A stretch of 53,606 nucleotides of DNA from a virus. Its lineage: Duplodnaviria; Caudoviricetes. The notes below the pieces were generated by a model. It did no database searches. It was given only the letters and a program-made list of their open reading frames with translations, and was not told the DNA's origin. How positions within the stretch are numbered: position 1 is the first letter of the stretch; every line of letters begins with the position of its first letter. Made by a program: the position numbers and the translations under genes. The stretch spans positions 1 to 53,606 of the IMG/VR virus record IMGVR_UViG_3300010376_000042. One strand, 5' to 3'. Below, in pieces: positions 19,888 to 36,665 of the stretch.

Positions 19888-20661
19888 ATGGCCGAAGCTC
19901 CGGAATGCATTCCGTTCTTCGAAAACGCCGATCGACTCACCGGGCAGTGCACCGCGCCGGTCGTCGGCTGTCGCTTCGTAACGTCGAGCGCTAATCTCAT
20001 TAGCGGTCCCGGCATTCCCGTCACGGCTCAGGTCGGCGCGTCCGACCCGGTCGATGGCGGCAACATCCAGGTGTCCCATGCTCCGGCAGGCTCGCGCCCG
20101 CTGGGTGTGTCCACCTGGACCGAAGCCGAAGGTGGGGATATCGGCATCATCACCGAGGGCGTTGTCCCGGTGTTGGCCGGTGCCAACCTCAACCCAGGCC
20201 AGGTCTGCGCCGTTGGTGCAGAAGGCAAGGCTGTCGCCATGGCGGCAGAAGGCAGCGCAGCGTCGCTGGAAACCGGCGTTGTCGCCAACAACAACAGGAT
20301 CAAGTTCACCGCAGTGGTGCCAGGTGCCCACGCGGGACTCAAGATCGTGCTTGCGGTTGCCGGCAACAACACCCCTCTGTCCGTGTCGGTCGCGGGCGAA
20401 GTGGTGACGGTGCATGTCGCCACCGGCGGCGCAGGCGAAGCGCTGAGCACGGCGGCGCAGGTGATCGCCGCAGTCAACGCGAGCGCTGCGGCGTCCGCGC
20501 TGATGACAGCCGCCAATGGCGGTGCGTCCAACGGAACCGGCGTCGTGGCGGCTGTGGCCGAAACCGCGCTGGCCGGTGGAACACTCCCGACCGAACCCGC
20601 TGGCCTGGTGGTCAACGGCGCGACGTCGGGCACGTTCGCAATGGTCAAGCTGCTCTGCTAG
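19888..20661 (+). CDS. Capsid decoration/cement protein (DUF2190-like) with inserted beta domain
   Basis: PLGV..., GVVPVLAGANL.PGQ...GAEGKAV; sits immediately before the major capsid gene. Confidence 0.7.
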   Translation: MAEAPECIPFFENADRLTGQCTAPVVGCRFVTSSANLISGPGIPVTAQVGASDPVDGGNIQVSHAPAGSRPLGVSTWTEAEGGDIGIITEGVVPVLAGANLNPGQVCAVGAEGKAVAMAAEGSAASLETGVVANNNRIKFTAVVPGAHAGLKIVLAVAGNNTPLSVSVAGEVVTVHVATGGAGEALSTAAQVIAAVNASAAASALMTAANGGASNGTGVVAAVAETALAGGTLPTEPAGLVVNGATSGTFAMVKLLC

Positions 20662-20699
20662 CAGAGCCCGAGTGAGAAGAAGGGAGTAGTGAGAAAAGA

Positions 20700-21608
20700 A
20701 TGACGCTAGTACCAAGTCCAGTACAGCATCCACTCGGGCCGCCAGTCGTAACCGGCTCTCTGGTCACGGTGGATGTGATGCTGAACCAGCCTACGCGCGT
20801 CACGCGGATGATCATGGACCTCTCGTTGCAGAGGTTCATCGCCGACCGCGTGTTCGCAAGTGCAGGCGGGGTGACGGGTGGCGCGGTCATCTATGACCAG
20901 GCCATCCTGAACCAGCTGTACCTGACCCGCGACGTCCAGAAGGTCGCACCGGGTGAGGAGATTCCGCTGGTGACAAGCGAACGCTTGACGCCGAAGGTCG
21001 CGGCTGTAGAAAAGTGGGGTGGTAAGACCTACATCACAGACGAGGCCAGGGATCGTAACAACAGCGTCGCGCTGACCAATCAGTTGCGACAGCTGACCAA
21101 CACGATCATCCGGAAGATCAACGCGAAGGCAATTGCCGTGCTGGAGAATACTCTGGCGGCGTTCCCGAGCCAGATCTACACCGGGCACGATTGGAACGCC
21201 TATCAGCCAGCCGGTACGAGCCCAAGCGCTCTCTCGGCCAGCCCGTGGGCGGACCTGATGACGGCGCAGATGCTGGCCGACAAGGACGAGTTGGGTGTCA
21301 CCTACGACACGGTGCTGCTCAACCCGCTGAACGTCCTGCGGCTGCGCCAGCTGTACACGTCGGCTTTGTTCCAGGGTCTCGAAGACCTCAACCTCACGAT
21401 CTACTCGTCCAACCGCGTTGCGGTAGGCAGCGGGTACATCGTGGCGTCTCAGCAGGTCGGAGAGATGCGCATCGAGAAGCCGCTCGGCACGGAGACGTGG
21501 CGCGAGCAGGGGACCGAGCGTAACTGGATCCAGAGCACCGTGCGTCCTGTCATGTACTGCACAAACCCGTTCTCGGTGCGTAAGATCACCGGAATCGGTA
21601 CGGCATAG
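20700..21608 (+). CDS. Major capsid protein
   Basis: 302 aa; TVDVMLNQPTRV, VAPGEEIPLV, KWGGKTYITDEARDRN resemble actinophage HK97-fold capsids; gene position. Confidence 0.85.
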   Translation: MTLVPSPVQHPLGPPVVTGSLVTVDVMLNQPTRVTRMIMDLSLQRFIADRVFASAGGVTGGAVIYDQAILNQLYLTRDVQKVAPGEEIPLVTSERLTPKVAAVEKWGGKTYITDEARDRNNSVALTNQLRQLTNTIIRKINAKAIAVLENTLAAFPSQIYTGHDWNAYQPAGTSPSALSASPWADLMTAQMLADKDELGVTYDTVLLNPLNVLRLRQLYTSALFQGLEDLNLTIYSSNRVAVGSGYIVASQQVGEMRIEKPLGTETWREQGTERNWIQSTVRPVMYCTNPFSVRKITGIGTA

Positions 21609-21623
21609 GGATGAGGTGATCAC

Positions 21624-22154
21624 ATGGCTCCAGCAACAGCATCCAAGGGACATGAGGTTCTCATCAAGCATGGCCTGTTCCGTTTCTACGACCCCGAGTT
21701 GCAGATCATCGGGGGCGAAGAGAAGGAGGTCCTGGTCGAGCGCATGGCGTTCCACAACGAGAAAGTTGTCATCCCCAGGGATGCCGACTTCGAGCGCGGC
21801 AAGCGGCTCGGCGCGTTCTGGACGCATCAGGAGGCTCAGGCACACTACACAGCACTCGGTGTGCCCGCTCCCAACCTGGGCGCGCAGGCGGCGGCTCTTG
21901 GGCCGCCACCGGCAGAAGACGACGGCGAGGAAGTCGAGCTCACCGAACTCGATGAGGACGATCTCGTCGACTGGCTGATGGGTACAGGCCAGTTCGATGG
22001 ACAGGCCAAGCCCACCGTTCAGCAGGTGGTGGAAGCCGGGCAGGAGGGTGGCCCGGAGTTCGCCACCAAGCTCGAAGCGGCTGAGAAGCGCGCCAGCGGC
22101 GACGCTCCTCGACAGGGCGTGACGGACGGATTGTCCAAGGTCACGGCAGGGTGA
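21624..22154 (+). CDS. Hypothetical head-associated protein
   Basis: GAGGTG RBS; C-terminal AEKRA...PRQGV..L motif common in genes after capsid genes. Confidence 0.65.
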   Translation: MAPATASKGHEVLIKHGLFRFYDPELQIIGGEEKEVLVERMAFHNEKVVIPRDADFERGKRLGAFWTHQEAQAHYTALGVPAPNLGAQAAALGPPPAEDDGEEVELTELDEDDLVDWLMGTGQFDGQAKPTVQQVVEAGQEGGPEFATKLEAAEKRASGDAPRQGVTDGLSKVTAG

Positions 22155-22162
22155 GGTAGAAG

Positions 22163-22645: not shown

Positions 22646-22646
22646 C

Positions 22647-23123
22647 ATGAAGATAGTAATGGAGCTTCACGGTGAGACGCAGCTACAGCGTCGATTCCTC
22701 AGGTGGAGCAGCTTCGCTTCTGACGCCACAGCGGCCTTTGAGGGAATATACGCCTATCTACTCAAGGTTGAGAAGGAACAGTTCGCCAGCCAAGGCGCTA
22801 CCAGCGGGCATGCTTGGGCGCAGCTAGCGCAGAGCACTGTGCAGGCCAAGCAACGTCAGGGACTGCGGCCAGAGATTCTTCGCGCTCATGACTTGCTATT
22901 CAGTTCGCTTACCAAAAAGAGTGATCCCAACCAACTGAAGATAGTGCAGCCTAACATGCTGGCTTTCGGCAGCATGATGCCGTATGCGCGCTATCAACAG
23001 ACAGGAACTAGCCGCATGCCGCAGCGCCGTCCGATCGACCTGAATGTCAAAAACAAGATCGCGATCATCAAGGCGCTACAGCTGTTCTTGGCCCGTGGCA
23101 TAGTGCGGGTGCCTCAGCTATGA
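22647..23123 (+). CDS. Virion morphogenesis / neck protein (Mu gpG-like)
   Basis: F..QG....WAQL..ST, PYARYQQTGTSRMPQRR. Confidence 0.75.
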   Translation: MKIVMELHGETQLQRRFLRWSSFASDATAAFEGIYAYLLKVEKEQFASQGATSGHAWAQLAQSTVQAKQRQGLRPEILRAHDLLFSSLTKKSDPNQLKIVQPNMLAFGSMMPYARYQQTGTSRMPQRRPIDLNVKNKIAIIKALQLFLARGIVRVPQL

Positions 23124-23773
23124 CCTCCATTATCGGCACAATCAATGGTGCGGACATAGTGCAGAGCAAGGTGATTGCTCACCTCAAGCTGTGGCTGCCG
23201 ACGTACCTGTGCGAAGTTGACGAACAACGTGGCCTGCCGCGCGGCAAGACGGCATGGCCCAGATCTTGGCAGGTAGTGCCATCGCTAGACAACTCGTTGG
23301 AGCAGCAACTACCGGCGATGCTGATCATATGCCCTGGCACTGCATCCAAGCCCATCAAGGAAGGTGACGGCAAGTACCGCGCCACCTACACCGTGGGCGT
23401 GGCGGTGCTGGTGAAGGGCAACACCCAGCTAGCTACGAACGAAATGGCCAAGCGCTATGGAGCAGCTATCGCGACGGCCATGTTGCAGGAGAAGGGTCGC
23501 ATAGATGAGAACGTGCATGCATGCGCGTGGGAGGGTGACACTTACGACGACATACAAGTCGAGAGCAATCGCACCCTTTCATCCGCCATGGTGCACTTTG
23601 GCATCGAGTTCAGCAACATACTGAGCGAGCGTGACGGACCGGCGATGCCCATTATTGAGCCGGATCCATATGAACTACCCAAGCCAGAACCCAAGACAGA
23701 AAAGTACAACCCCTGGGGCATCATCCCAGACGAACAGCACATTCACGTAACCATCGAACCGAAGGAGTCGTGA
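23120..23773 (+). CDS. Tail terminator / completion protein
   Basis: Position before sheath; QLPAMLII motif. Confidence 0.6.
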   Translation: MTSIIGTINGADIVQSKVIAHLKLWLPTYLCEVDEQRGLPRGKTAWPRSWQVVPSLDNSLEQQLPAMLIICPGTASKPIKEGDGKYRATYTVGVAVLVKGNTQLATNEMAKRYGAAIATAMLQEKGRIDENVHACAWEGDTYDDIQVESNRTLSSAMVHFGIEFSNILSERDGPAMPIIEPDPYELPKPEPKTEKYNPWGIIPDEQHIHVTIEPKES

Positions 23774-24075
23774 TGAACGATTTCCGGTACGTGGGGTCTA
23801 CCCCTACGGATCTAGAAGGTGGGCGTCCCATCGCGCCGGGAGAGTTCACCGGCGAAATCGATGTGACCGAGGAAGCTCCCAAGAACAAGATGCTTTTGGA
23901 CGAGGGCTTGCTCGTGCCAGCACCTAGCGAGGCGGAACGCGAAACGCTTGCGCAGAAGGCCGAAAAGGCCCAGACGCAAGAAGAATCGTCTGCCGCCGCT
24001 GCGAAGGATGCCGGCGACACCGAGCCAACCACAACCACCGAAGACGGTGCAGGCACTGGAGGTACTGAGTCGTGA
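23770..24075 (+). CDS. Small acidic protein preceding sheath
   Basis: AAGGAG RBS; coupled to sheath gene. Confidence 0.65.
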   Translation: MMNDFRYVGSTPTDLEGGRPIAPGEFTGEIDVTEEAPKNKMLLDEGLLVPAPSEAERETLAQKAEKAQTQEESSAAAAKDAGDTEPTTTTEDGAGTGGTES

Positions 24076-25538
24076 CTGCTACACTGCCCAGGCCGGGGTA
24101 TAGCACTTCGGTCCTCAGCAGCCCGTTCCCATCCACGCTTATCACGGCGACCGGCACGTGGTTCGCGGCGGGCATCTGCGAAAAGGGTCCGCTCAAGCCT
24201 CTCAAGGTAGAAAGCCTGAGCGACTTCGTCAACAAGTTCGGCAGCCGCGTGTCGTATGGCATGATGTACGACGCGATGGACGAGTTCTTCTCGGACGGCG
24301 GGGCACTGGCCTACGTCGGCCGTGTGGTGGGGCCAGCGGCGGTTGTCGCGAGCCACACCCTGGAAGATGCTTCTGCCGGAGAATCCTTCAAGGCTGAAGC
24401 GCTCGGCCCTGGGGAATACGCCAACACCACCAAGGTGAAGGTGACTACGGTCAGCAGCAAATTCACCATCGAAGTTCTGGTGGGAAGCGTGGTGGTGGAA
24501 GTCTCGCCTTCGTTCGAAACGCAGGCCGAAGCCATAGCGTGGGCCGCGCTGAGCAGCTACATCGTGCTCAAGCTCGGAGCGTCGTCGCTGATCCCCAAGA
24601 CGCAAGAAGTGACGCTGACAGGCGGTGCCGATAACCGTGGCAGCATCACTGGCACGCAGTGGAAGGCTGGACTGGAATTGTTCGGCAAGTCACTTGGCCC
24701 CGGCCAGGTGTCGATGCCCGGACAGACCACCCAGGAAAACTACATCACGCAGTTGGAACACGCGCTCAACTACAACCGCTTCGCGCTGCTGGACGGACCG
24801 CAGAGCGGAACGGCGAGCACAGTGTCGGCGGCAGCCACCGCGCTGCGCGACACGGCAGGGCGCGACACCTATGGCATGATGTTCGCTCCTTGGGTGACGA
24901 TCCCAGGTGTGCTACCCGGCACTGTGCGGCAGATACCGCCAAGTGCGCTGGTGGCCGCCAAGATCGCCTCGTCCGATGGGGAAGGCAAGTCGCCCAACCG
25001 TCCTGCCGCTGCAACCAACGGCAAGAGCATCAGGGCGATCGGGCTGGAACAGAAGCCGTTCAACAGTGGTAGTGGTGAAGAAGTCACTCGTGACGAAATG
25101 TACACGAATGGCGTCAACATCATCAGGGAAGACGGTGGCGTCATCGAGGTTTATGGATGGCGTGTGCTGACCAACCCGAACGGCACGTTCCAGGACTGGC
25201 TCAACGCAGGCAACGCACGCCTGCGCATGGCCATCGTCGCCAAGGCCAACGCGATCGCGAAGCGGTTCGTGCTGGACGAAATCGACGGTGCCGGAAAGGT
25301 TCTCAAGGAATTCGAAGGAGAACTGAAGGCGATGTTGGGCGAATACTACAGGATGGGCTCGCTGTTCGGGGCTACGCCTGAAGAAGCGTTCAGCGTCAAC
25401 GTCGGGCCGAGCGTGAACACGCCGGAAACCCTGCACAATCTCGAAATGAAGGCCGCCATCGCGCTTCGGATGAGCCCGGACGCGGAGATGGTAGTCATAG
25501 TCATTTCGAAGGTGCCGATCACGCAGCCCCTGCCATAG
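24072..25538 (+). CDS. Contractile tail sheath protein
   Basis: PRPG start, F...FG, FF.DGG..AYVGRV, LTGGAD, RFALLD, PPSALVA, YGWRVL. Confidence 0.9.
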   Translation: MTATLPRPGYSTSVLSSPFPSTLITATGTWFAAGICEKGPLKPLKVESLSDFVNKFGSRVSYGMMYDAMDEFFSDGGALAYVGRVVGPAAVVASHTLEDASAGESFKAEALGPGEYANTTKVKVTTVSSKFTIEVLVGSVVVEVSPSFETQAEAIAWAALSSYIVLKLGASSLIPKTQEVTLTGGADNRGSITGTQWKAGLELFGKSLGPGQVSMPGQTTQENYITQLEHALNYNRFALLDGPQSGTASTVSAAATALRDTAGRDTYGMMFAPWVTIPGVLPGTVRQIPPSALVAAKIASSDGEGKSPNRPAAATNGKSIRAIGLEQKPFNSGSGEEVTRDEMYTNGVNIIREDGGVIEVYGWRVLTNPNGTFQDWLNAGNARLRMAIVAKANAIAKRFVLDEIDGAGKVLKEFEGELKAMLGEYYRMGSLFGATPEEAFSVNVGPSVNTPETLHNLEMKAAIALRMSPDAEMVVIVISKVPITQPLP

Positions 25539-25556: not shown

Positions 25557-25970
25557 ATGAGCAGGCAAGATCAGTACAACGTTACCGTATCTGTCGCAGG
25601 CACAAACCTCGGAACCTTCGACAAGATGAGCGGTGGCGACTTCGACTCCGAGGAAACCAAGTACAAGCCGGGTGCCATGGCACCACAGATCAGCCTGGGA
25701 GGTTCCCAGACGGTCACCAACATCACGGTGTCCCGCCTGTACGTGCTCGAACGCGATCACCCTCTGATACCTTGGCTCAAGGCTCAGGTCGGCAGGGGAG
25801 TGGTTGTGGTGTCCAAGCAGCCGATGGACATCAACGAACACCCCTTCGGGAGTCCCATTGTGTATCAGGGGATTCTCAAGAAGGTCGTGCCGCCTCCGGC
25901 TGATTCGGGGGCGACGTCGACGCCAGCCCTGATCGAGTTCGAAGTCTCGACGGGCGGCACAGTCACCTAG
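25557..25970 (+). CDS. Tail tube protein
   Basis: 137 aa directly after sheath; FDKMSGG, NITVSR. Confidence 0.8.
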   Translation: MSRQDQYNVTVSVAGTNLGTFDKMSGGDFDSEETKYKPGAMAPQISLGGSQTVTNITVSRLYVLERDHPLIPWLKAQVGRGVVVVSKQPMDINEHPFGSPIVYQGILKKVVPPPADSGATSTPALIEFEVSTGGTVT

Positions 25971-25999: not shown

Positions 26000-26611
26000 A
26001 TGGACGCAGTAGACGAGACAGGCGCAGGGGTTGAGCAGACAGACGAGGCTCAGCCGCCTGCGCCGCTACAGGGCGGTGCGCTGGAGGTAGAACGCCAGTC
26101 GCTGCTGGACCAGCTGGCTGAGACACGTCAGGAGATCAAGGAACAGGCCAAGCCGTTGCATCTGGACGTGCCTGGCTACAAAGACCAGCTGTGGGTGCGG
26201 TTCAGGCCGTACTCCATCAGCAAGACGGAGCGCAAGGTGCGCGCGCTCCAGAGCGGTGTCAACAAGAAGAAGCCGATGCTGTTGGCTGGCGCTTGCGACA
26301 CTATCATCGACGCGTGCGAGCAGGTGATGCTCCTGCCCGAGCGCTTCCACGGCGACATCGGTGAGGACGGGAAGAACCTGATCACCATTGATGACGTGGT
26401 GCCGGTCGGCTTCGACCAGCGCCTGGCTCAGCTGTTCAAGGTGCCGGGTGCCGATCGCATGACCGAAGCGCGTCAGGTGGTCATGGCCATGTTCCCCACC
26501 GAGCAGGCCATTCTCAAGATGAGCGTCACCGTGAGCGAATGGCTCAATGGTGAACTCAACGAGGACGCCGATGAGGAGTTCCTGGGAAACTCCGAGGGCA
26601 CGAGGCAGTAA
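26000..26611 (+). CDS. Tail assembly chaperone (short form)
   Basis: Between tube and tape measure; ends with a slippery heptamer. Confidence 0.75.
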   Translation: MDAVDETGAGVEQTDEAQPPAPLQGGALEVERQSLLDQLAETRQEIKEQAKPLHLDVPGYKDQLWVRFRPYSISKTERKVRALQSGVNKKKPMLLAGACDTIIDACEQVMLLPERFHGDIGEDGKNLITIDDVVPVGFDQRLAQLFKVPGADRMTEARQVVMAMFPTEQAILKMSVTVSEWLNGELNEDADEEFLGNSEGTRQ

Positions 26612-26760
26612 GGATGGCCGCATTCATCACAGAGGCAGGGCTGGACGGGGTCGCTTGGCTCAAGACCGACGACCGCGTTGAGAGCCTTGCCACGGTGGCG
26701 ATTGCGGAGGTCGTCCACGAGCGTCGTGCCGAGGCTCGTAAGAAGGCAGAACAAGGCTAA
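26584..26760 (+). other. Programmed -1 frameshift site GGGAAAC (26584-26590) and extension frame of the tail assembly chaperone
   Basis: G GGA AAC in frame; -1 frame (LRGHEAVRMAAFITEAG...KKAEQG) is open to TAA 26758-26760, which overlaps the tape-measure ATG. Confidence 0.8.
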
Positions 26761-28865
26761 TGCCCGTATCCGCTGAAGCGCTCGACATCATTCTGCGGTT
26801 GCAGGGGGTGCCGACGTATGTGGCGGGGATGCAGGAGGCCAGCGGTGCTAACGACGAGTTCGCCGCCAGCAGCAAGCGCGCATCGGGCATGAGCAACAGC
26901 GCAGCCGCCGCGTCTGAGAGGCAAGCAGGCGCGGCGGCTCTCGTTAGCAAGGCCATGAAGGGAACCGGGTTGATCCTGGCGGCAGCCGGGGTCGAGGGCA
27001 TCCGCATGGCGATCAAGTTCGAAAAGCAGATGGAGATGATCCACACCCAGGCTGGCGCGAGTCAGCAGGAAGTGGAAAAACTCAAGAAGGAGGTCCTCGC
27101 ACTAGCAGGCACCGTGCCGCAAGGTCCAGAAGAGCTAGCCATGGGACTGTACCACCTGGAGTCTATTGGACTCAGGGGTGCCAAGGCGATGGAAGCGCTC
27201 AAGATAGCCGCGCAGGGCGCGGCTGTCGGCAACACCGACCTAGAGTCTACCGCTAGTGCGCTCGGTGCCGCCTGGATCGTGAACATCAAGGGCGCAGGCG
27301 GCTTCCACGACACTATGGGTGTGCTCAACGCCACCGTCGGCGCGGGCAACATGCGCATGGGCGAACTGATCAATGCGCTAGGCACGGGCATCCTGCCGGT
27401 AGCCAAGCTCGCTGGCCTGAGCATCCAGGATGTAGGTGCAGCGCTGGCGACGCTGTCCGATTCGGGCTACAGCGCGAGCAGCGGTGCGGCACAGCTGGGC
27501 ACCGCGCTGCACTTCCTATACGCGCCGACGACCAAGGCCAAGAAGGCGTTGGAAAGCCTTGGGCTGACGCAGGCTCAACTACTCAGCGAAATGAGCGGCC
27601 CGAAGGGTCTGCATGGCGCGCTGGAACTACTCAAGACGCACCTGAGCAACGCAGGCGACCACGCAGAACAGATGGAAAAGCTAGGCGAAATCTTCCCTGG
27701 TGGCCGTGGCAAGGTGATCCTGACGTTGATCACCGAGCTCGAACGTCTGGAAATGAAGCGCAACCAGATAAACCGCACGGGCGGCGCGTTCAGCGATGCC
27801 GTCAAGCGCACGATGGAACAGCCTGCCGTCCGCATCCAGAAGGCGTGGTCCAAGTTCCAGGCCATCCTGATCGAACTGGGTCAAGCGATGGAGGGTCCGG
27901 CTACCGCTGCGCTCGTCACCTTCGCCAAAGCGCTAGGCGGTGTGTTGGGCCTACTAATGGCGATGACCGATCACGGCAAACTGCTGGTGCCCATTATCCT
28001 GGGGCTGGCAGGTGCGTGGCTCATATACAAGGGTGCGGTGATGGCCGCCGCTATCGCCGAGTGGGCTTACAACGGTGCGATGACGGCGCTGGCCATCGCC
28101 AGCCTCATACCAGAGATCACCAGCATGGCAGATGCTTGGTTCCTGTTGGACGCCGCGATGGATGCCAATCCCATCGGCTTGATAGTGCTAGCAATCGCCG
28201 CAGCGGTAGCGGCTATCGCGTTGGCGACATACGAGATTATCACCCACTGGAAGCAGATCGTAAACTTCTTCAAGGGTTGGGGTGGCGTGCTACTGCCGCT
28301 GATCCTCGGGCCGTTCCTCGGCGGCGCGCTGCTAATCGTGCTGCATTGGAAAGTGGTCAAGAACTTCTTTATGGGCGTGGTCCATTGGATCGAAACGGCA
28401 TGGGGCAAACTAGGAGGCATCCTGGCGTGGCCGTTCGAATGGCTATGGAAGAAGGCCATGTCCATCTTCGCTGCCATCAAGAAGGGTCTGGGCGAAATCA
28501 TCAACGCGCCCGGTCACGTGTGGCACGACATCACTGGTGGCGCGAGCAGCGTGCTGGGCTCCCTTGGTCACGTGCTCGGGGGCATCCCAGGTATGGCGGC
28601 AGGCGGGACAATGACATCGAGCGGCTTCGCACTCATCAATGAGGGTGCAGCCGGTGAGACGGTGTGGCTGCCAGGCGGTAGTACGGTGCAGCCTAGCCCA
28701 GCTAGTAGCCTCCTAAGCCCACGAGCCCACACACCCAACCCTGCCCCACAGCAGGAAGGGATGCAGGTGTTCCTAGAGGCTTACCTACAGATGCCGCCCG
28801 GTACGGGTCGCGGCCTGTTCAAGCTCATTACTAAGGAAGTCGCAATCAAGAAGGCGCGGACATGA
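26760..28865 (+). CDS. Tape measure protein (TP901-type core)
   Basis: 701 aa Ala/Gly-rich helical; FEKQM, Trp-periodic repeats, MAAGG...INEG..GE C-terminus. Confidence 0.88.
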   Translation: MPVSAEALDIILRLQGVPTYVAGMQEASGANDEFAASSKRASGMSNSAAAASERQAGAAALVSKAMKGTGLILAAAGVEGIRMAIKFEKQMEMIHTQAGASQQEVEKLKKEVLALAGTVPQGPEELAMGLYHLESIGLRGAKAMEALKIAAQGAAVGNTDLESTASALGAAWIVNIKGAGGFHDTMGVLNATVGAGNMRMGELINALGTGILPVAKLAGLSIQDVGAALATLSDSGYSASSGAAQLGTALHFLYAPTTKAKKALESLGLTQAQLLSEMSGPKGLHGALELLKTHLSNAGDHAEQMEKLGEIFPGGRGKVILTLITELERLEMKRNQINRTGGAFSDAVKRTMEQPAVRIQKAWSKFQAILIELGQAMEGPATAALVTFAKALGGVLGLLMAMTDHGKLLVPIILGLAGAWLIYKGAVMAAAIAEWAYNGAMTALAIASLIPEITSMADAWFLLDAAMDANPIGLIVLAIAAAVAAIALATYEIITHWKQIVNFFKGWGGVLLPLILGPFLGGALLIVLHWKVVKNFFMGVVHWIETAWGKLGGILAWPFEWLWKKAMSIFAAIKKGLGEIINAPGHVWHDITGGASSVLGSLGHVLGGIPGMAAGGTMTSSGFALINEGAAGETVWLPGGSTVQPSPASSLLSPRAHTPNPAPQQEGMQVFLEAYLQMPPGTGRGLFKLITKEVAIKKART

Positions 28866-29590
28866 GCGGACCACCTAGTCTTGGATGGGTTTACTTCTGG
28901 TCAGACAGTCCGGCCTACAGCCTGACTTGCCTGCTAGGCGAAACATCGCCCACGCCAACACGCGGAGCGCAGGCATATGGAGGCTGGCAATACATCAAGC
29001 GCAAGCGCCGTCGTTCGCTGATGGAGTGGCTTGGCGTCGACGGGCTGAGCATGGACATCAGCATACTGATAGACAAATTCGCAGAAGGCAAGAGCGTCGA
29101 GGCGCAGATCACGCAGCTAGAGCGTATGGCCGGGCGCTCGCGGCCTGGCGTGCCTGATAAAGAGCCACCGCTGATCCACTTCGACAGCATGGGTGTGGTG
29201 CCGCATGACTATCACCGCGAGCCGCAGACTGAATGGGGCATCATCGAAATCCAGTGGGGCGACGCTGATCGCAACACGGATGGCAACCGCATCCGCCAGG
29301 CTGCGATATTGACGGTAGGCGAGTATGTGGAAGACGACAACCTAGCCGGGCTCACCAGTGCGCAGCGCAAGAAGATTGCCCAAAGCAAGCGCAGCGCCAA
29401 GAAGGGCAAGGGTGCCAAGGGTGCCAAGGAGAAGCGGTATGTCGTCAAGAATGCCAAAGAAACGATGGAGACCATAGCCGCACGTGAGCTAGGCAAGTCA
29501 TCCCGCTGGCACGAGATTGCCAAGCTCAATCCGAGCCTGCGTGATCCCACTCGCGAAATACACCCAGGCACGATCGTGACGTTGCCATGA
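28862..29590 (+). CDS. Tail tube initiator / baseplate protein with C-terminal LysM domain
   Basis: YVVK..ETMETIAARELG...WHEIAKLN.....IHPG...TLP. Confidence 0.8.
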   Translation: MSGPPSLGWVYFWSDSPAYSLTCLLGETSPTPTRGAQAYGGWQYIKRKRRRSLMEWLGVDGLSMDISILIDKFAEGKSVEAQITQLERMAGRSRPGVPDKEPPLIHFDSMGVVPHDYHREPQTEWGIIEIQWGDADRNTDGNRIRQAAILTVGEYVEDDNLAGLTSAQRKKIAQSKRSAKKGKGAKGAKEKRYVVKNAKETMETIAARELGKSSRWHEIAKLNPSLRDPTREIHPGTIVTLP

Positions 29591-31722
29591 GTAAGGCGCT
29601 CGCCCCTCCCAAGCACAAGAAGGCAGCCAAGGAGCTCAGCCGTCAGAAGGGCATCGCTGCGCCGGAGGACCTGGAGCTTGCGGCAGAGGGTATCAGCGTC
29701 GATACATTCCTGGTGGACGTAGCCAAGCTGCACCACCTCAAGGTCAACTTCGCAGAATCTATCACCGAAGGCTACGTCGAACGCAGCATCGAAGGAGCTA
29801 GCGTCATCAGCATCACGGTGCATGACGGTACACGGGAAATCCTGCGCAGCGGTATGTTCGGCACGGACAGCAATGAAAAGCTACCCGCCATTGATGTCAA
29901 GGTGGAAGGCATATGGTACAGGTTGGCTTCGTTCCAGAAGAACGAAGAGGAGCTCACGCTGGAATTCGAAGACCGCATCGTGGCCTTCCTCAAGAGCCAC
30001 ACCAAGCCCATCAGCGCTAGCCGCGCTCACACCACGCGCGCAGAGTTCATCGGGCGCATGGTGCGAGAAGTTCGCGCAACCAAAATCCGATACTTCTGCC
30101 CGGAGCTCCATCGCAAGCAGCCCATCGAAGGACAGGGCGGAGTTGAGGGTTACACGGTTGACAAGAAGACTGGCAAGCGTCGCTACAAGTCAAAGAAACG
30201 TAGCGAGCGCGAACGCAAAGCAGAACTGTCCGGTGGCCTGCTCACCAGCACCACCATCAAGGTCAAGGGTGTAGAAGCCACCAAGAGCCAGCTACAGATT
30301 CTGGAGGAAATACTAGATACTGGCAGCGAAATGAGCGCCAATCGCAAGGTGTTGATCTCCAGCATCATGTGCGTGATCCAGGAGTCGGACGTGAGCATCC
30401 TGCACGACCCGGCTACTGGCGAAGGGCCATTCAGTCAGATCCCGGCCGATGGCTGGCCTGGCGGTAGCGATGTGCCGAGCGATGCACGTGCATACTTCAA
30501 GGAGGCCATCAACAACGACAAGGCTAACCCAAGCCTGACGTTGGCGGAACTGGTGCAGAGCGTACAGAAATCCGGTGCGGGCGCTAGCCACTATGCGCCT
30601 TGGCGCCAGGAAGCTGAAGAGATACTCAAGGAGTATGGCGAAAAGGGCATCGCCGCGCAGCATGGTGGCACCTATACCAAGGAGTACGACTTCCACCGTG
30701 GACCGCCAGATGGCCCGACCAACGAGAACAGCTGGGAAGCCAGCGAACGCCTAGCCAAAGAAGTCAACTGGCGCAGGTTCGTAGTGGGCAACACGTTCTA
30801 CTTCGTGCAGGATCACGACCTGATACATCGCAAGCCTACCGCCGAGATAGACGAGGACACGGAGGGCATCGAAAGCATCAACGGCACCGTTGATGCAGGC
30901 ATCCCAGTCAACGAAGCCGTCGTGAAGTGCCGCGCTACGCGCTGGTGGGCTCCACCGGGCAGCGTCATCAAGGTCAAGAATACTGGGCCGCTCAATGGGC
31001 GCTGGCTGGTATTCAACATACATCGTGATTTGTTCAGCGAGGAAACCGAAGTCAAGCTGCATCAGCCAGAAGCGGCCAAGCCAGAAAAAGCAAGCGAAAA
31101 GGTGCAAGTGCAGAAGAGCGGCGAAGGTCAGGCGCTGATCCTGGGCAGCCACATCAGCGGTGGTACTCCGCGTGCGCGTATCGTGGAAGCTGCAAAGTGG
31201 GGGTTGGAACACAAGCCGGAATTCCGTTACCTGGAGTATCGGCCGATGGCGAAGTCGCTGTTCGAAAAGTTCGCGCTGACGCACACGGACTGCTCAGCTT
31301 TCGCGACGCTGTGCTACAAGGCTGCCAATGTCAAGGACCCCAACGGCAACGGCTACAACGGCAGCGGCAACACGGTGTCGCTGCGCGCCCACGGCAACAA
31401 AACCAACAACCCGCAGCCGGGCGACCTCGTGTTCTACCGTTCGCCGGAACACGTCGCGGTGTACATAGGCGAAGGCAAGGTGATCGAGCTAGGCGGTACG
31501 CCAGGACCGAACGAAGAGCCCATACACTACCGCAATGACTTGCTCGAATGCCGCAGCTACAACCTAGAAGAAGAAGCACAGCCGTCGCCCAAGCCCGGAC
31601 CGCGCGGTGAACCGCCCACGCCGCAAGTGCTCACTAAGAAGGGCAGGGAAGAACGTGCCAACCCGTTCCACCTACCGAACCTGGGCGAAAACGCTCTGGC
31701 ACAGGCTACAGGTGAAGGCTGA
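29587..31722 (+). CDS. Baseplate hub with inserted lysozyme-like domain and C-terminal NlpC/P60 peptidase
   Basis: Hub N- and C-terminal parts; IQES...GPFSQ..GW...VQSVQKS insert; DCSAF, PGDLVFY, HVAVYIG. Confidence 0.8.
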   Translation: MSKALAPPKHKKAAKELSRQKGIAAPEDLELAAEGISVDTFLVDVAKLHHLKVNFAESITEGYVERSIEGASVISITVHDGTREILRSGMFGTDSNEKLPAIDVKVEGIWYRLASFQKNEEELTLEFEDRIVAFLKSHTKPISASRAHTTRAEFIGRMVREVRATKIRYFCPELHRKQPIEGQGGVEGYTVDKKTGKRRYKSKKRSERERKAELSGGLLTSTTIKVKGVEATKSQLQILEEILDTGSEMSANRKVLISSIMCVIQESDVSILHDPATGEGPFSQIPADGWPGGSDVPSDARAYFKEAINNDKANPSLTLAELVQSVQKSGAGASHYAPWRQEAEEILKEYGEKGIAAQHGGTYTKEYDFHRGPPDGPTNENSWEASERLAKEVNWRRFVVGNTFYFVQDHDLIHRKPTAEIDEDTEGIESINGTVDAGIPVNEAVVKCRATRWWAPPGSVIKVKNTGPLNGRWLVFNIHRDLFSEETEVKLHQPEAAKPEKASEKVQVQKSGEGQALILGSHISGGTPRARIVEAAKWGLEHKPEFRYLEYRPMAKSLFEKFALTHTDCSAFATLCYKAANVKDPNGNGYNGSGNTVSLRAHGNKTNNPQPGDLVFYRSPEHVAVYIGEGKVIELGGTPGPNEEPIHYRNDLLECRSYNLEEEAQPSPKPGPRGEPPTPQVLTKKGREERANPFHLPNLGENALAQATGEG

Positions 31723-32012: not shown

Positions 32013-32329
32013 TGAGCATCCAGAACCAACACTTCGCCTTGCCATTCAAGTTCGGCAGCAACGGACACGCTGAAGTGGTCGAGCAGGACAGCCCGGAAGA
32101 CGTGGCCAACTGTGCCGACGCCGTGCTGAGCACACCGCGCGGCTTCCGGCTAGAGATACCTGACTTCGGCATACGCAATCCAGTGCTGACGGAGAACGGA
32201 CCCAACATCAACGAACTGATGGCTGCGCTAGAAGAATGGGAGCCGCGCGCAGCGTACACGCTCACCGAGCAACAACTGGAAGACATCCTGTCAAAGTACG
32301 TCAACGTTGGCGTGGAAAGAAAGGGGTAG
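32012..32329 (+). CDS. Baseplate wedge protein, gp25/GPW family
   Basis: HFALPF, L.TPRG.R...PDFG, LEEWEPR. Confidence 0.85.
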   Translation: MSIQNQHFALPFKFGSNGHAEVVEQDSPEDVANCADAVLSTPRGFRLEIPDFGIRNPVLTENGPNINELMAALEEWEPRAAYTLTEQQLEDILSKYVNVGVERKG

Positions 32330-32332
32330 GTC

Positions 32333-33730
32333 GTGGCTGAATACGTCAACGTTCCTGAAGAAACCGATCCTGACGTACTTGCCCAGGACGCCTTCGAATA
32401 CCTGGAAAGCAAGCAGCCTAGCTGGACGCCTAGCGATGGGCAGCTTGACACCTGGATGATCACCGCGATAGCGCGCATGATCTCCGTGCTGAAGGACACG
32501 GCCAGTGACGTGCGCACGAACATCTTCCGTTGGTTCGGAGCTACGGTGTTCCTGCTACCGCCGCAGGAAGAGACCAGCGCCAGCGTCAAATCAACCTGGA
32601 AACTGACCGACACCGAAGGCCACACCATTGAAGCGGGCACGGCGGTCGGAGTGCCCAACGCTGCGGGCGAATTGATACCGTTCGAAGTCGCAGAAGACGT
32701 GGTGGTGCCTACGGGACAGAAAGAAACCGCAGCGGGTGGCGTGACGCTGCTGGCGGTCAACCCTGGCACAGAAGCGAATGGCCTGGGCAAAGCGGGCACC
32801 GTATGCAAGCTGGAAGATCAGTTCCCATGGGTTGAAGAACCCAATGGCATCACGCTGACGGAAGCCAGCAGTGGCGGCCAGGAAGAAGAGACGGACGAAG
32901 CCTATCTCAACCGCCTGGTCAGCGACATTCGGTTGATGGCGTTGGCGCCCATCACGTTCGAAAACTACGCTGTGCTGGCGCGCAACATCGCGGGCGTGTA
33001 CCGTGCTGTAGCCATCAACCTGTACCGGCCGACCAACAACGTACACACTGGCAAGGTGACCAATGGCAGCGCCGTGGTGGAAGAACTCACAGAAGCGTTC
33101 ATCAAAGAACACGTGACGGTCGGCACCGAAGTCACAGGCGAAGGTTTGCCTAGCGGTTGCAAAGTCATCAGCATGGAACCCGCAGCTGGCAAGGTTACGC
33201 TCAGTCACAACGCGGAATCAAGCCACACCGGGGCGAACTACACGTTCATCGGAATGTGGGAACAAGAAAAGTGCGTGACGGTGGCCCTGGTCAACGAACA
33301 GGGTCTAGCTGTCAGCGGTGCAGTAGAAGCTGAAGTCAAGAAATACCTAGAAGAACGACGCGAAGTCAACTACATCATCAGCGTCATCGCGCCAACCTAT
33401 ACGGAAATCGACGTAGAATTCGAATGCAAGCACTGGCCTGGTTGGGAAGCTGCCACTGTCAAGGCAGCGTGCAAGGCGGCCATTGAAGAATTCCTCAACC
33501 CTGCCAAGTGGGGTCTGCCGCCATTCGGTGACAAGCTGGCCTGGTACAGCCGCGAACTTGCCAAGGTCAATGACATCATCGCAGCGCTAGGGCAGGTACA
33601 GGGCGTCAAGGACGTCAATTTCGTCAAGATCAGGCGTCACGGCGTAGGCGCATATGAAGAAAAAGACATCACGCTGACCGGCGTGGCAGCGCTGGCCAAG
33701 CCTGGCACGATTGAAGGCACGGTGGTTTGA
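32333..33730 (+). CDS. Baseplate J/gp47-family protein with inserted domain
   Basis: A.NPGTEANG, GGQEEETDEAYLNRL, IAGVYRA, VQGV.DV. Confidence 0.88.
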   Translation: MAEYVNVPEETDPDVLAQDAFEYLESKQPSWTPSDGQLDTWMITAIARMISVLKDTASDVRTNIFRWFGATVFLLPPQEETSASVKSTWKLTDTEGHTIEAGTAVGVPNAAGELIPFEVAEDVVVPTGQKETAAGGVTLLAVNPGTEANGLGKAGTVCKLEDQFPWVEEPNGITLTEASSGGQEEETDEAYLNRLVSDIRLMALAPITFENYAVLARNIAGVYRAVAINLYRPTNNVHTGKVTNGSAVVEELTEAFIKEHVTVGTEVTGEGLPSGCKVISMEPAAGKVTLSHNAESSHTGANYTFIGMWEQEKCVTVALVNEQGLAVSGAVEAEVKKYLEERREVNYIISVIAPTYTEIDVEFECKHWPGWEAATVKAACKAAIEEFLNPAKWGLPPFGDKLAWYSRELAKVNDIIAALGQVQGVKDVNFVKIRRHGVGAYEEKDITLTGVAALAKPGTIEGTVV

Positions 33731-35010
33731 TGCCCGAACCCACAGTCACCGAACTAGGGCGCATGGTGTATGAAGCACTTGCGCCTCTGGCCAAGTCAGA
33801 CGCAGGACTGGGCTGGCCGCTGCTCACGTACAGCGACGCGCTTGTGGCGCAGGCGCAGCCAGTACGTGATCAGGCACGTGACCGTGGCGCCAAAGAACCG
33901 GGTTGGAGTATCCTATTCAATCTGCCGCAGTGCCCGTCCTACGCGCTGGACTACCTAAGCCAGTTCGCTGGCGCAGACCTTACGAAGCTCAAGCGCGGCA
34001 TCAAGGTACTGCTACGCAACGAATTCAAAAACCCTAGCTTCGAGTATGACGCGGCAGGGAGCAAAGCGCCCTTCGGATGGAAATCCGATAACTCGGCATC
34101 GCTGACGGAAGAAGTTTTCGAAGTGGATGAAGTGTGGGCCGCTAAGGGCGTCAAGTCCCTGCACATAAAGGCCAAGAAGGACAACAGCGTGACGCGCAGA
34201 CGCGTTGGCTTCAATACTGGCGTGCCCTCCTCCAATTACATCCCTGTATCGCCAGGACAGCACCTGACGTTGCAGGCGCAGCTGAACATCCTGCACGCAG
34301 CGGGCGCTGGCTTCGAGTTCTCGCTGACGTGGTTCAAGGCTGACGGCTCCACCATACTCAGCACTTCATTCGGAGAAGCAGTACTGGTGGGTGCGACCGG
34401 CCTACAAAGCATACAGCAGTCGTTCATCGCACCGGAACACGCGGCCTTCGCGGAAGTAGTGCTGGGTGGTTACTCGGAAACAGCCGAACAGGTGATTGAG
34501 TATCGCGTTGACGCGCTGATGGCTCTGGTCAGCGCCAGCGCGCCTGTTGGTACTATCGAATACGTCGACGGGGACCAAAAAGAAGGCGCATGGGTAGGCA
34601 TACCGGGACAGAGCGCTAGTGTCAAGTACACCGAACAGTCTGAAGAAGAATTCAACGAAGCCAAGCGCTTCCGGATCAAGGAACTGAAGGCAGCGCATCG
34701 TGGCATGCCGTCCGCCATCATCGCTGCTGCCAAGCAGTACCTCATCGGTGACCAGACGGTCATCATGCAGGAGCGCCCAGGCGGCAACCCCTGGCGGCTG
34801 GCCGTGATCACCTACTCAGAGGAGACGCCCAACGAACAGTTGGTGCGGGAAGCAATAGAAGAACAGATGCCAGCTGGCATCGTGCTGGAATACAAGACGG
34901 TGCCGGGTGCTGACTGGCTCGTCATTCGTACTGAATACACGACGTGGCAGCAGGTCAAGGAAGCGTTTGCGACCTGGGGCGGCGTCCGAGTCAACAAACC
35001 AGGAGAATAG
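33727..35010 (+). CDS. Baseplate wedge protein (P2 gpI-like) with inserted carbohydrate-binding-like domain
   Basis: CP..ALDYLSQFAG...HRGMPSAI...MPAGI framework interrupted by an N.FKNPSFE-initiated jelly-roll-like domain. Confidence 0.7.
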   Translation: MMPEPTVTELGRMVYEALAPLAKSDAGLGWPLLTYSDALVAQAQPVRDQARDRGAKEPGWSILFNLPQCPSYALDYLSQFAGADLTKLKRGIKVLLRNEFKNPSFEYDAAGSKAPFGWKSDNSASLTEEVFEVDEVWAAKGVKSLHIKAKKDNSVTRRRVGFNTGVPSSNYIPVSPGQHLTLQAQLNILHAAGAGFEFSLTWFKADGSTILSTSFGEAVLVGATGLQSIQQSFIAPEHAAFAEVVLGGYSETAEQVIEYRVDALMALVSASAPVGTIEYVDGDQKEGAWVGIPGQSASVKYTEQSEEEFNEAKRFRIKELKAAHRGMPSAIIAAAKQYLIGDQTVIMQERPGGNPWRLAVITYSEETPNEQLVREAIEEQMPAGIVLEYKTVPGADWLVIRTEYTTWQQVKEAFATWGGVRVNKPGE

Positions 35011-35012
35011 AA

Positions 35013-36665
35013 ATGCCCGGACCATCTGGCAAGACCCTACGGCGCGAACTGCCCTACGGCCTGCTTGGCGACACGCCGGACTTCGAAGCAGACAGCCGGG
35101 CACTCGCGGAAGCACTAGATCAGTTCGCCAAGTTCAACCAAGGCTTGCTCGCTGCGCGGCCCGCAGCCGGAGCCAGCAAGGAAGGCGACATCTACTGGGC
35201 CACCAACGACACCACCTGGGGACCCAACGGTACGTGGTGGATCCTATACGGTGGCGCATGGACCATGCTACCACTTCCTACCGTTACAGAAGCGATGCTG
35301 GCGTCCGCCCTGCTTGGGCCGTCGGCTGCCAACTTCGGCCTGCGCAAGCTAGGCACGGGCGGCACCGAAGCTATGGCCGGCAACGATACACGCATCACGG
35401 AACGCGGCAACAAGGACTTCATGCAGCCTGGTGTAGTGGAAGGCTCAGACTGGAAGTTCGCTGGCGCTATCAATGCGGGCACGGGCGAACTTAGCTCAGC
35501 AGCCGGTACTGGCGGCAAGGCGTGGATGGAAGATCCAAGCCATGCAGGTCAGTTGATCCGCTCAGTCACGGCTAGCGCCGTGTTCAAAGCGGCGCCATCG
35601 GCGCTGCCGGTATCAGGCGATTTCATCAACGTGCAGATCGAGCTCGCGCCAAGCGCTACCTGGAACGGCGAAGCCACGGTGTCTGCCCACTCCGGCGTAC
35701 AGCAGACGACGCAGGCACTGGCGGAAAGCAATCCGCCCGCTACTACTGCGGGGCGCATCGCCGTCAAGCGCATCATCATCAAGAACACCGCTGGCGTGTA
35801 CTCCATCGTCAACGAATTCGACGTGCGAGCGCTGGCCGACGGAGAACAGCGTGGTTACTACGGCGACGGCTCAACTGGCTACCTAATGCTGGATGGCACC
35901 AATGCCGCAACGGGCTTCTCACGTTCGGGCAGTGAATACACCTGCACGCAAGATATCTACGCGCTGAACATGATCGTCAAGGCAGGCGTCACCGTCAAGA
36001 CCAACGGCATGCGCATCTTCGTGCAGAATATACTCACCAACGAAGGCACGATCGACAACTCAGGCGCAGCTGGCACGGCTGGCACCAAAACGGAAGAAGG
36101 GAAAGGTGGCGCGGCAGGCGTCGCCAACGTGCTGAATGGTGGCTCGGCTGGAGGGCGCGGTGGAAAACCTATAGCCGGTGGCGAAGTGGGCGTGGCCGCA
36201 ACCAGCATCGTGTCGAACGGGTTCGGGGGCGCAGGTGGCACAGGTGGCACCAGCAACCCCGGAAAGGTTGGAGGCTCAGGCGGCAGCATGACGCATCCGC
36301 CTGGCTTGGCGCGGCGCAACTCGATTGAGGTATTCGAAGGCGAACAGAAGTGGAAGGGTGGCGCAGGCGGTGGCGGTGGCGGATCAGCCGAACTTGGTGG
36401 TGGCGGCGGTGGAGGCGGAGGCGGAGGCATCGTGCTCATCGCTGCCCGCTACATCACCAACTCCGGCACCATACGCGCCAACGGCGGCAACGGTGGCAAC
36501 GAAGGCGAAAACGGCGCAGGCGGTGGCGGTGGCGGCGGTGGTGCCGTCTACCTGATCCGTGGCGGCGAAGCGGCAGGCGGTACGGTGCAGGCCAATGGCG
36601 GCACGCACGGCAACAGTTCCGGGGCCAATGGCGAAGCCGGAATTGTAGTCAAGATAGCCGCCTAG
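35013..36665 (+). CDS. Glycine-rich tail fibre / receptor-binding protein
   Basis: Last structural gene; AGGAG RBS; YYGDGSTG, poly-Gly runs, ANGG repeats. Confidence 0.8.
   Translation: MPGPSGKTLRRELPYGLLGDTPDFEADSRALAEALDQFAKFNQGLLAARPAAGASKEGDIYWATNDTTWGPNGTWWILYGGAWTMLPLPTVTEAMLASALLGPSAANFGLRKLGTGGTEAMAGNDTRITERGNKDFMQPGVVEGSDWKFAGAINAGTGELSSAAGTGGKAWMEDPSHAGQLIRSVTASAVFKAAPSALPVSGDFINVQIELAPSATWNGEATVSAHSGVQQTTQALAESNPPATTAGRIAVKRIIIKNTAGVYSIVNEFDVRALADGEQRGYYGDGSTGYLMLDGTNAATGFSRSGSEYTCTQDIYALNMIVKAGVTVKTNGMRIFVQNILTNEGTIDNSGAAGTAGTKTEEGKGGAAGVANVLNGGSAGGRGGKPIAGGEVGVAATSIVSNGFGGAGGTGGTSNPGKVGGSGGSMTHPPGLARRNSIEVFEGEQKWKGGAGGGGGGSAELGGGGGGGGGGGIVLIAARYITNSGTIRANGGNGGNEGENGAGGGGGGGGAVYLIRGGEAAGGTVQANGGTHGNSSGANGEAGIVVKIAA

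Follow-up and report, generated by a model that had tools for sequence, protein, structure and literature searches.

We analysed the complete phage record IMGVR_UViG_3300010376_000042 (53,606 bases, GC about 0.60, genes all on the + strand; 'the window' denotes this whole stretch) and find that the choice between the glutamate codons GAA and GAG, and likewise between the lysine codons AAA and AAG, is conserved at single residues between the window and its syntenic relative G002. The latter is a 56.7-kb viral contig (loci L010+L011+L012, GC 0.51), whose proteins are 84% (major capsid), 71% (the polymerase DnaE) and 59% (tail sheath) identical to those of the window. At the level of whole genes, GAA is concentrated in a few virion genes that have also been re-composed in their amino acids. 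A literature search of limited extent, supplements excluded, retrieved no phage with a GAA bias in a single codon family or with site-conserved GAA/GAG choice.

For the site-by-site comparison 44 ortholog pairs of the window and G002 were aligned, and Mantel-Haenszel odds ratios (ORs) were calculated within genes. The synonymous sites of the two genomes are saturated, with a third-base identity of 0.28-0.33 at four-fold sites, and the GC content at third codon positions (GC3) is about 0.72 in the window vs about 0.55 in G002. Yet where both phages carry Glu, the codons agree at 436 of 542 sites (codon table [[157,55],[51,279]]), compared with 336 ± 9 in 5,000 within-gene shuffles, none of which reached 436. 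The corresponding OR is 10.6, or 9.7 without the five GAA-rich genes described below. Lys present in both phages behaves alike ([[12,6],[59,222]], OR 8.3), whereas the controls Asp (1.3), Asn (1.2), His (1.4), Tyr (0.5) and Phe (1.1), as well as the four-fold boxes (A vs G 1.6, C vs T 1.5), lack such concordance. The baseplate hub illustrates the effect with 21 GAA-GAA and 12 GAG-GAG pairs but only 5 discordant ones, and the replication genes alone, pooled by hand, give an OR of about 6.5 ([[30,25],[28,151]]). As synonymous sites are saturated while the Glu and Lys choice is kept, selection appears to act on the codon, conditional on the residue, site by site.

The effect is tied to the single site, since the OR falls to 1.1 when each codon is paired with the following conserved Glu of the other genome. 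Domain-level blocks or tRNA re-use were rejected on the lag-1 autocorrelation within a genome (OR 1.0). The Glu OR still amounts to 6.7-16 among sites at which the residues, or the bases, on both sides differ. No nucleotide motif was found within 9 bases on either side of GAA or GAG, the largest frequency difference being 0.15, and the residues that neighbour GAA and GAG are only mildly different (Asp 5.2% vs 7.1%, Lys 6.3% vs 4.6%). Where Glu in one of the two genomes is replaced by Lys in the other, the third base is not retained (OR 2.0, not significant), and this randomisation rules out a slow A/G mutation rate after A. General conservation of rare codons was rejected as well, as the ORs for Gly, Leu, Ile, Ala, Pro, Thr and Val lie between 0.9 and 2.2; the exceptions are the Arg codons AGR (4.2) and CGA (3.8).

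Other saturated phage pairs with mixed GAA/GAG usage (L028-L033, L033-L044, L028-L032 and L032-L044) display ORs of 1.15-1.4, with a codon table of [[57,40],[67,54]] for L028-L033; hence, the concordance signal is no product of the method. The signal recurs in a second Glu/Lys-rich clade, in which L052, L055 and L065, each compared with L091, yield ORs of 5.0-9.7 for Glu, 3.3-10.5 for Lys and 0-0.7 for four-fold A/G. These four genomes have a GC content of 0.66-0.69, and A-ending codons make up 1-7% in most of their boxes (CGA 0.14). GAA accounts for about 50% of their Glu and AAA for about 54% of their Lys, rising to 83% and 76%, respectively, in the sheath. In L055 (GC 0.67), GAA encodes about half of Glu and AAA about half of Lys, despite the rarity of A-ending codons elsewhere.

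For the gene-level analysis, codons were counted in 72 open reading frames (ORFs) of the + strand that had been selected mechanically in the window. Five non-adjacent virion genes, encoding a cement-like head protein, the sheath, baseplate J, a 427-residue protein and the tail fibre, encode 145 of their 159 Glu (0.91) by GAA, compared with 413 of 1,155 (0.36) in the remaining 67 ORFs (chi-square p=1.2e-39, a value inflated by the choice of the five genes after viewing the data). A test free of this selection agrees, for the heterogeneity among genes reaches a chi2/df of 5.4 for Glu vs 0.7-1.8 in seven other two-fold families. The genes concerned and those used for contrast are the following.

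19888..20661, + strand: cement/decoration-like head protein, 257 residues; 4 Asp, 13 Glu, GAA 12/13 (0.92); G002 ortholog GAA 19/23
24072..25538, + strand: tail sheath, weak PF04984 match below the cut-off; 16 Asp, 32 Glu, GAA 29/32 (0.91)
32333..33730, + strand: baseplate J, PF04865; 17 Asp, 49 Glu, GAA 47/49 (0.96)
33727..35010, + strand: tail/baseplate protein of 427 residues, family unassigned, weak match to an unnamed PHROG; GAA 30/36 (0.83)
35013..36665, + strand: Gly-rich tail fibre; GAA 27/29 (0.93), counted on the longer mechanical ORF from 34944
29587..31722, + strand: baseplate hub with NlpC/P60 domain; GAA 49/73 (0.67, intermediate)
26760..28865, + strand: tape measure, PF10145; 13 Asp, 39 Glu, GAA 22/39 (0.56, intermediate)
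25557..25970, + strand: tail tube; GAA 4/6, too few Glu to judge; G002 tube 2/7
20700..21608, + strand: major capsid, the contrast gene, PF25209 and PHROG 1650; GAA 3/13; G002 ortholog 84% identical, GAA 6/17
18348-19886: protease/scaffold; GAA 10/50, the C-terminal part with a run of 20 consecutive GAG
26000-26611: tail chaperone; 5 GAA, 15 GAG
45852..46670, + strand: acidic protein resembling a single-stranded DNA-binding (SSB) protein, DUF669, the opposite extreme; GAG 37/39; G002 ortholog GAG 45/51
91..3444, + strand: DnaE-type polymerase, the reference for an ordinary gene; 21 GAA, 64 GAG

The mechanical GTG start of the fibre gene at 34944 overlaps the preceding gene by 67 bases, and the ATG at 35013, just past the stop codon of that gene, is the likelier start. 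Near-pure GAG, the mirror image of the five genes, is found at 5529-5879 (16/16), at 45852-46670 (37/39) and in the C-terminal part of 18348-19886. The G002 orthologs of the DUF669 gene and of the protease/scaffold are equally GAG-rich; an ortholog of 5529-5879 was not found in G002.

An initial annotation had reported, from hand counts, that outer virion proteins are depleted of Asp and switch to GAA-encoded Glu, and that the capsid, chaperone, SSB-like and DnaE genes prefer GAG. Every one of its counts that was rechecked proved correct, including the 10 GAG among 13 Glu codons of the capsid gene, the 2 and 3 GAG codons left in baseplate J and the sheath, the 173 Asp-free residues that follow the last Asp of the cement-like protein (residue 84 of 257), the longest Asp-free run of 161 residues in baseplate J and the last Asp of the fibre 202 residues before its end; the GAA bias is stronger than first stated. 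The proposed link to surface exposure roughly holds in both the window and G002, as the cement-like protein, the sheath, baseplate J and the fibres are GAA-rich and the capsid, protease/scaffold and chaperone are not. It blurs at the tube, which has too few Glu, and at the internal tape measure and the hub with their intermediate values.

The depletion of GAG is restricted to the codon frame. In-frame GAG occurs 2.1 times per kb in the five genes vs 16.4 elsewhere, compared with 2.4 vs 1.8 in frame 2 and 2.4 vs 3.6 in frame 3, which excludes motif avoidance and a context-blind mutational process. A restriction site or nuclease target as the avoided motif was rejected on this frame restriction together with the lack of a flanking motif. 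Codon context, which would equally have accounted for the bias, fails: at every neighbouring base, GAA accounts for 0.84-0.95 of the Glu codons in the five genes and for 0.28-0.41 of those in the others. The GC3 of the five genes (0.68-0.77) matches the rest of the genome, and the other 17 degenerate codon families all compare at p>=0.011. Among the codons that wobble-uridine (U34) tRNAs are expected to read, GAA is enriched in the gene set, AAA is weakly raised (0.20 vs 0.11) and CAA is not (0.14 vs 0.22); CAA constitutes about 21% of the Gln codons of the window. The cement and capsid genes, which lie 38 bases apart, differ in GAA fraction (0.92 vs 0.23).

The same bias is present in relatives. 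G002 is GAA-rich in the sheath (31/34), four distal tail genes (107/113) and the cement ortholog (19/23), and GAG-rich in the capsid, DnaE and DUF669 genes (GAA 6/17, 20/87 and 6/51). Contig G001 has only the tail module in common with the window, at 24-41% identity, and shows a stronger bias that includes Lys: its sheath contains 5 Asp and 46 Glu with GAA 41/46 and AAA 17/25, and its baseplate J 8 Asp and 42 Glu with GAA 39/42. Nearly every virion gene of G001 is GAA-rich, while its non-structural genes use about 75-80% GAG. Both GAA and AAA are enriched in G001 and G002, CAA is not, and orthologs at 30-59% identity in three lineages retain the GAA bias. Arthrobacter phage Jawnski and Gordonia phage GMA6, which possess homologous sheath and baseplate genes, lack the pattern. 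Across 80 related contigs most sheaths are Asp-rich with GAA at or below background, and a Glu/Lys-rich minority is both GAA- and AAA-rich.

No tRNA genes were detected in the window, in G002 or among the 80 related loci scanned, and no tRNA for Glu or Lys in any locus examined. G001 (L002) encodes tRNA-Arg(TCT) and tRNA-Cys(GCA) at 1207-1281 and 12900-12971. No gene for tRNA repair or modification was recognised in the window, except for a weak PHROG match to polynucleotide kinase at 52045-52734 (E 2e-11), which has no Pfam match; if real, it would open a possible link to RNA or tRNA repair.

Along with their codons, the virion proteins have changed their amino acids. Relative to the rest, the five proteins are low in Asp (3.2% vs 5.4%), Arg (3.5% vs 7.4%) and His, and enriched in Gly, Ala, Thr, Val and Asn. 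For baseplate J, the Asp share D/(D+E) is 0.26-0.45 in the close relatives of the window vs 0.50-0.86 in all 19 distant homologs. The 11 sheaths of the window's clade have D/(D+E) values of 0.33-0.43 and K/(K+R) values of 0.46-0.66, compared with 0.62-0.78 and 0.14-0.35 in the next 20 homologs. In a maximum-likelihood tree of 118 sheaths these 20 form the sister clade of the window's clade (support 1.0) and include no Glu/Lys-rich member, and the Glu/Lys-rich trait changes 4 times vs at least 12 times under label shuffling. The cement-like protein follows suit, with 0.21-0.42 in 13 close homologs and 0.78 in 53 cement-only homologs pooled. Most homologs outside the clade thus do not show the same low Asp content, and judged from these alignments the shift to low Asp/Arg and high Glu/Lys in sheath, baseplate J and cement protein is derived and clade-specific. 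To this extent a changed surface composition, as the initial annotation had suggested, is supported as a derived pattern of the clade; the causes it had named, such as acid-labile Asp bonds, an Asp-directed protease or cross-linking, would be speculative candidates. Its more specific idea that Glu or Asn stands where homologs have Asp applies in part: such positions occur, but direct Asp-to-Glu replacement is minor, as only 4 of 76 GAA sites in sheath and baseplate J fall in Asp-dominant homolog columns. The extra Glu residues are mostly aligned with Ala, Thr, Ser, Asp, Asn, Gln or Gly of homologs, so by alignment the change is a broad re-composition rather than a plain Asp-to-Glu swap. That Asn is enriched speaks against chemical stability as a simple reason for the low Asp content.

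GAA and GAG sites differ in their depth of conservation. In DnaE, strongly conserved columns contain 11 of the 64 GAG codons but none of the 21 GAA codons, and the mean Glu fraction among homologs is 0.34 for GAG vs 0.22 for GAA. The sole invariant Glu of baseplate J, E186, is among its two GAG codons, and the most conserved Glu of the sheath, E472, among its three. Overall, GAG occupies the more conserved columns in 10 of 12 genes (stratified z=2.71, p=0.007); the equivalent test for Lys gives z=1.55 and p=0.12, and the codons of Asp (GAC 0.64, GAT 0.63) and Asn (AAC 0.45, AAT 0.49) are equally conserved. Opposite GAG, Glu is the commonest homolog residue in all six proteins compared (DnaE, hub, sheath, baseplate J, the 28862 protein and tape measure). 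For GAA codons this holds in DnaE, hub and sheath, whereas Ala (0.17) leads in baseplate J, Asp (0.24) in the 28862 protein and Lys (0.14) in the tape measure, without a recurring alternative. The window-G002 codon table for Glu fits a simple arithmetic in which about half of the conserved Glu admit GAG alone, the remainder being GAA with a frequency of about 0.75 in both genomes.

Reassignment of a sense codon, with GAA read as Asp, was rejected, since GAA is found opposite G002 Asp codons in 8% and GAG in 10% of cases; the comparison with conserved homolog columns has low power for GAA in that no DnaE GAA site lies in a strongly conserved one. Of the differential decoding considered in the initial annotation, the weak sense stands, namely that the two codons are not selectively equivalent; there is no sign that a different residue is inserted.

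On the basis of these results we tentatively favour, as plausible though far from secure, the reading that a host with two tRNA-Glu species makes GAA and GAG non-equivalent. The effect is limited to codon pairs whose members have distinct U34 and C34 tRNAs as readers, which points to the decoding tRNAs. A 2-thiolated (s2U34) tRNA-Glu would be the sole reader of GAA, and a C34 tRNA-Glu would additionally cover GAG; GAG, as the doubly covered codon, would plausibly be more robust or accurate, and GAA would rely on a single tRNA. We infer this two-tRNA basis, and the codons would differ in robustness, fidelity or speed, with fidelity, speed or availability as the property under selection. Selection would then fix GAA or GAG at each Glu, and AAA or AAG at each Lys. 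GAG would tend to stay at old, functionally constrained Glu, and GAA would be preferred at lineage-specific Glu in positions that vary across the wider families. As nearly all Glu of the re-composed exposed virion proteins would be lineage-specific, their genes would arrive at 83-96% GAA. In PMC10531406, M. tuberculosis is described as having tRNA-Glu(s2UUC) and tRNA-Glu(CUC), with GAA read by the former only, and the enzyme for the usual additional U34 modification is there stated to be not apparent. Excerpts of PMC6620280 report that loss of tRNA-Lys(UUU) through MazF-mt9 in M. tuberculosis stalls ribosomes only at AAA.

Several points weigh against this reading. The site analysis comprises one deep genome pair and three smaller pairs, the latter all with L091 as a partner. 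Some conserved Glu are coded by GAA (E344 in baseplate J, E500 and E128 in the hub, E143 in the sheath), and both the gene at 23120-23773 and the protease/scaffold reverse the trend of GAG towards conserved columns. Nearly all Glu codons are GAG in both the rapidly evolving part of the scaffold and the acidic DUF669 protein, which a rule that variable positions take GAA does not predict; deep conservation accounts for part of the GAA/GAG choice only. Secondary structure was rejected as a determinant on an AlphaFold model of the hub, in which GAA and GAG are predicted to be distributed alike over helix and non-helix ([[20,29],[10,14]], OR 0.97, p=1; mean predicted local distance difference test score 73.9, with 147 residues below 50). 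Moreover, the host is guessed to be actinobacterial from the nearest cultured phage homologs only, and an active preference for GAA, beyond mere tolerance, is left unaccounted for by two tRNA-Glu species.

Ordinary translational selection, by which GAA (and AAA in the relatives) would be efficient in the host or late tRNA pool while other genes drift to GAG under GC pressure, is an unlikely but serious competitor. It agrees with G001, where the virion genes are nearly all GAA-rich with a shift to AAA and the non-structural genes are mainly GAG, with a bias that affects the codon frame alone and recurs in relatives, and with small shifts of the expected kind (Phe TTC 0.98 vs 0.89, Leu CTG 0.51 vs 0.42). 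However, the bulk capsid of the window and of G002 (3/13 and 6/17) and the protease/scaffold (10/50) are GAG-rich, and the most extreme genes encode baseplate J (47/49) and the fibre (27/29), which are low-copy parts if typical virion copy numbers are assumed; G002 is alike in this respect. Neighbouring cement and capsid genes should not differ by 0.92 vs 0.23, and no other codon family shifts at p<0.01. Uniform selection within genes would furthermore not conserve single sites, yet the replication genes do so with their OR of about 6.5.

Regulated or defence-driven decoding, in which GAA-rich messages depend on tRNA-Glu(UUC) and its 2-thiolation, so that the production of tails and decoration is gated, or in which another tRNA is lost in infection, appears rather improbable to us. 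A comparable case of codon-dependent gating is that of bldA and TTA codons in Streptomyces. The unusual behaviour is limited to NAA/NAG pairs of thiolated U34 tRNAs, with Glu and Lys site-conserved, and G002 is nearly devoid of CAA (8/412 Gln codons), as gating or loss of such a tRNA would allow. Precedents consist in isoacceptor-specific control in actinobacteria (parts of PMC10531406 and PMC6620280) and in tRNA-targeting anti-phage defences, whose existence a portion of PMC10264068 documents. Against gating stand the lack of a tRNA gene in the window and of Glu or Lys tRNA genes in the loci examined, the lack of a recognised repair or modification gene beyond the weak polynucleotide kinase match, and the differences between genes within one apparent late operon. 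Gating also leaves the site conservation inside early genes unexplained.

That GAA and AAA are read differently in kind, because the thiolated tRNA inserts a share of another or a modified residue or works only in some host state, is a distant prospect. If it were true, such codons on tolerant exposed positions would create a heterogeneous virion surface or a tail production gated by host state, and the near-ban on CAA in G002 would be part of the same decoding peculiarity.

Selection on composition alone, for a Glu/Lys-rich and Asp/Arg-poor surface with GAA as a by-product of codon origin or mutation bias, is very doubtful. The compositional switch is indeed real, derived and clade-specific in three proteins, and at most GAA sites the distant homologs have a residue other than Glu. 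Saturation between the window and G002 should, however, have erased such history; off-frame GAG is not depleted, A-ending codons are not raised in other families, and the likely precursor codons mostly end in G or C. Saturation, the frame restriction and the free exchange of the third base at Glu-to-Lys replacements together leave this account largely refuted.

A recent transfer of the five genes from a single donor with different codon usage, conceivable in that phage genomes are mosaic and G001 has only the tail module in common with the window, is scarcely credible and did not fit when tested: the genes are non-contiguous, their GC3 and 17 other codon families match the genome, the bias is retained by orthologs (30-59% identical) of three lineages, and the single-site concordance, which extends to non-virion genes, contradicts it.

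The two-tRNA reading can be set beside known systems. The codons of one amino acid are usually regarded as almost equivalent, and the position-specific effects that have been reported are weak. Akashi-type selection for accuracy favours the preferred codon at conserved residues. Similarly, GAG, and less clearly AAG for Lys, is over-represented here at deeply conserved residues. Unlike in that system the effect is confined to Glu and Lys, with Asp, Asn, His, Tyr, Phe and the four-fold boxes null, the concordance OR of about 10 is far above the weak effects known, and GAA, far from being random, is likewise conserved where it occurs. Codon usage of phage structural genes adapts to the host. The virion genes of the window likewise differ from the early genes, but in one amino acid, with the major capsid excluded and low-copy tail parts most extreme. 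Position-specific conservation of rare codons, a term that also appears in the review PMC7829197, has been linked to co-translational folding. Here, too, synonymous choice is conserved at homologous positions; the rare codons of Gly, Leu, Ile, Ala, Pro, Thr and Val, however, are not conserved, and the hub model offers no link to helices.

In codon-biased translation through wobble U34, GAA, AAA and CAA depend on 2-thiouridine (as set out in parts of PMC10531406, PMC5114619, PMC11705076 and a 2026 MnmA preprint), and a passage of PMC10531406 names GAA-enriched gene sets in M. tuberculosis as its authors' speculation. The present gene set, too, is enriched in the codon of a single thiolated tRNA, if the host tRNAs are as we infer. 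It differs in consisting of phage virion genes and in the codons involved, which are GAA only in the window and GAA plus AAA in the relatives, never CAA; conservation at the level of sites lies outside that concept, and the present case is known from codons alone. Inactivation of isoacceptors, by MazF-mt9 for AAA (excerpts of PMC6620280) or by tRNA-targeting defences, is similar insofar as one synonymous codon becomes a liability or an asset depending on the surviving tRNA. Unlike there, no nuclease, tRNA or repair gene was identified in the window, and the phage enriches the single-tRNA codon instead of avoiding it; the avoidance of CAA in G002 is the closer parallel.

In the homolog-supported genes of G002, CAA accounts for 8 of 412 Gln codons, 7 of these 8 lying within the first 52 codons of mechanical ORFs and 6 within the first 17. 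Other A-ending codons are common in this genome (GCA 0.33, GGA 0.28, ATA 0.25, AAA 0.41, GAA 0.48), and off-frame CAA trinucleotides are plentiful (227 and 458). The scarcity suggests a host that is unable to read CAA or loss of tRNA-Gln(UUG) in infection. Two G002 genes, at 13893-14657 and 33478-34365, encode Lys mainly by AAA (10/13 and 30/36) and Glu mainly by GAG (23/29 and 23/27), showing that the Glu and Lys preferences are not simply coupled. In G002, frameshifts interrupt the genes for baseplate J and the PD-(D/E)XK nuclease, and probably those for portal and protease (27196-28373, 41275-42332 and 12077-14657). The one in baseplate J sits around a stretch of Lys codons, without an in-frame stop pattern, and the frameshifts are likely assembly errors, not recoding.

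Among the remaining genes of the window, DnaE, ThyX, an SNF2 helicase, a PD-(D/E)XK nuclease, a Sak4-like protein, the DUF669 SSB-like protein and a primase-helicase were recognised as belonging to replication and nucleotide metabolism. Large terminase and lysozyme are encoded as well, the head genes comprise a Mu-type portal, the Mu-like protease/scaffold and the major capsid, and the tail genes sheath, tube, tape measure, NlpC/P60 hub, baseplate J and Gly-rich fibre. Sheath tblastn matches include annotated tail sheaths of Gordonia and Arthrobacter phages. The 257-residue cement-like protein has no Pfam or PHROG match of its own, and its homologs P0321 and P0325 (53-58% identity over the N-terminal half) score 28.5 and 29.9 bits with PF09956 (Phage_cement_2), above the cut-off of 24. 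PHROG 673 names these two 'head scaffolding'. Judged by the PF09956 matches, 'decoration protein' is a reasonable designation for the product encoded ahead of the capsid gene. The ORF at 50184-50597 (GC3 0.42, CAA 10/12 Gln codons) is unlike all its neighbours and is probably no real gene or in the wrong frame.

The nearest cultured relatives are actinobacteriophages and distant, with 48% identity in the capsid (Gordonia phages), 45% in DnaE (Streptomyces phages) and 28% in the sheath. The closest relatives, contigs of about 54-56 kb, are 67-78% identical in baseplate J and 68-72% in the sheath, and scans of genome and metagenome contigs revealed no close relative. In the protein atlas, window proteins matched viral clusters only. 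One sequencing run, labelled soil metagenome, contains the window stretch and is possibly the source itself, hence no independent evidence of habitat; no RNA sequencing run containing it was listed.

The move of three exposed proteins from Asp/Arg-rich to Glu/Lys-rich provides a clean case for asking what environmental or host factor shapes the surface chemistry of virions. An OR near 10 that is repeated in a second clade and absent from control clades suggests strong selection at the level of residues, tied to the decoding isoacceptor. Codon 'optimisation' of such phage genes could be harmful, and codon patterns confined to a single family could hint at the tRNA set of the host.

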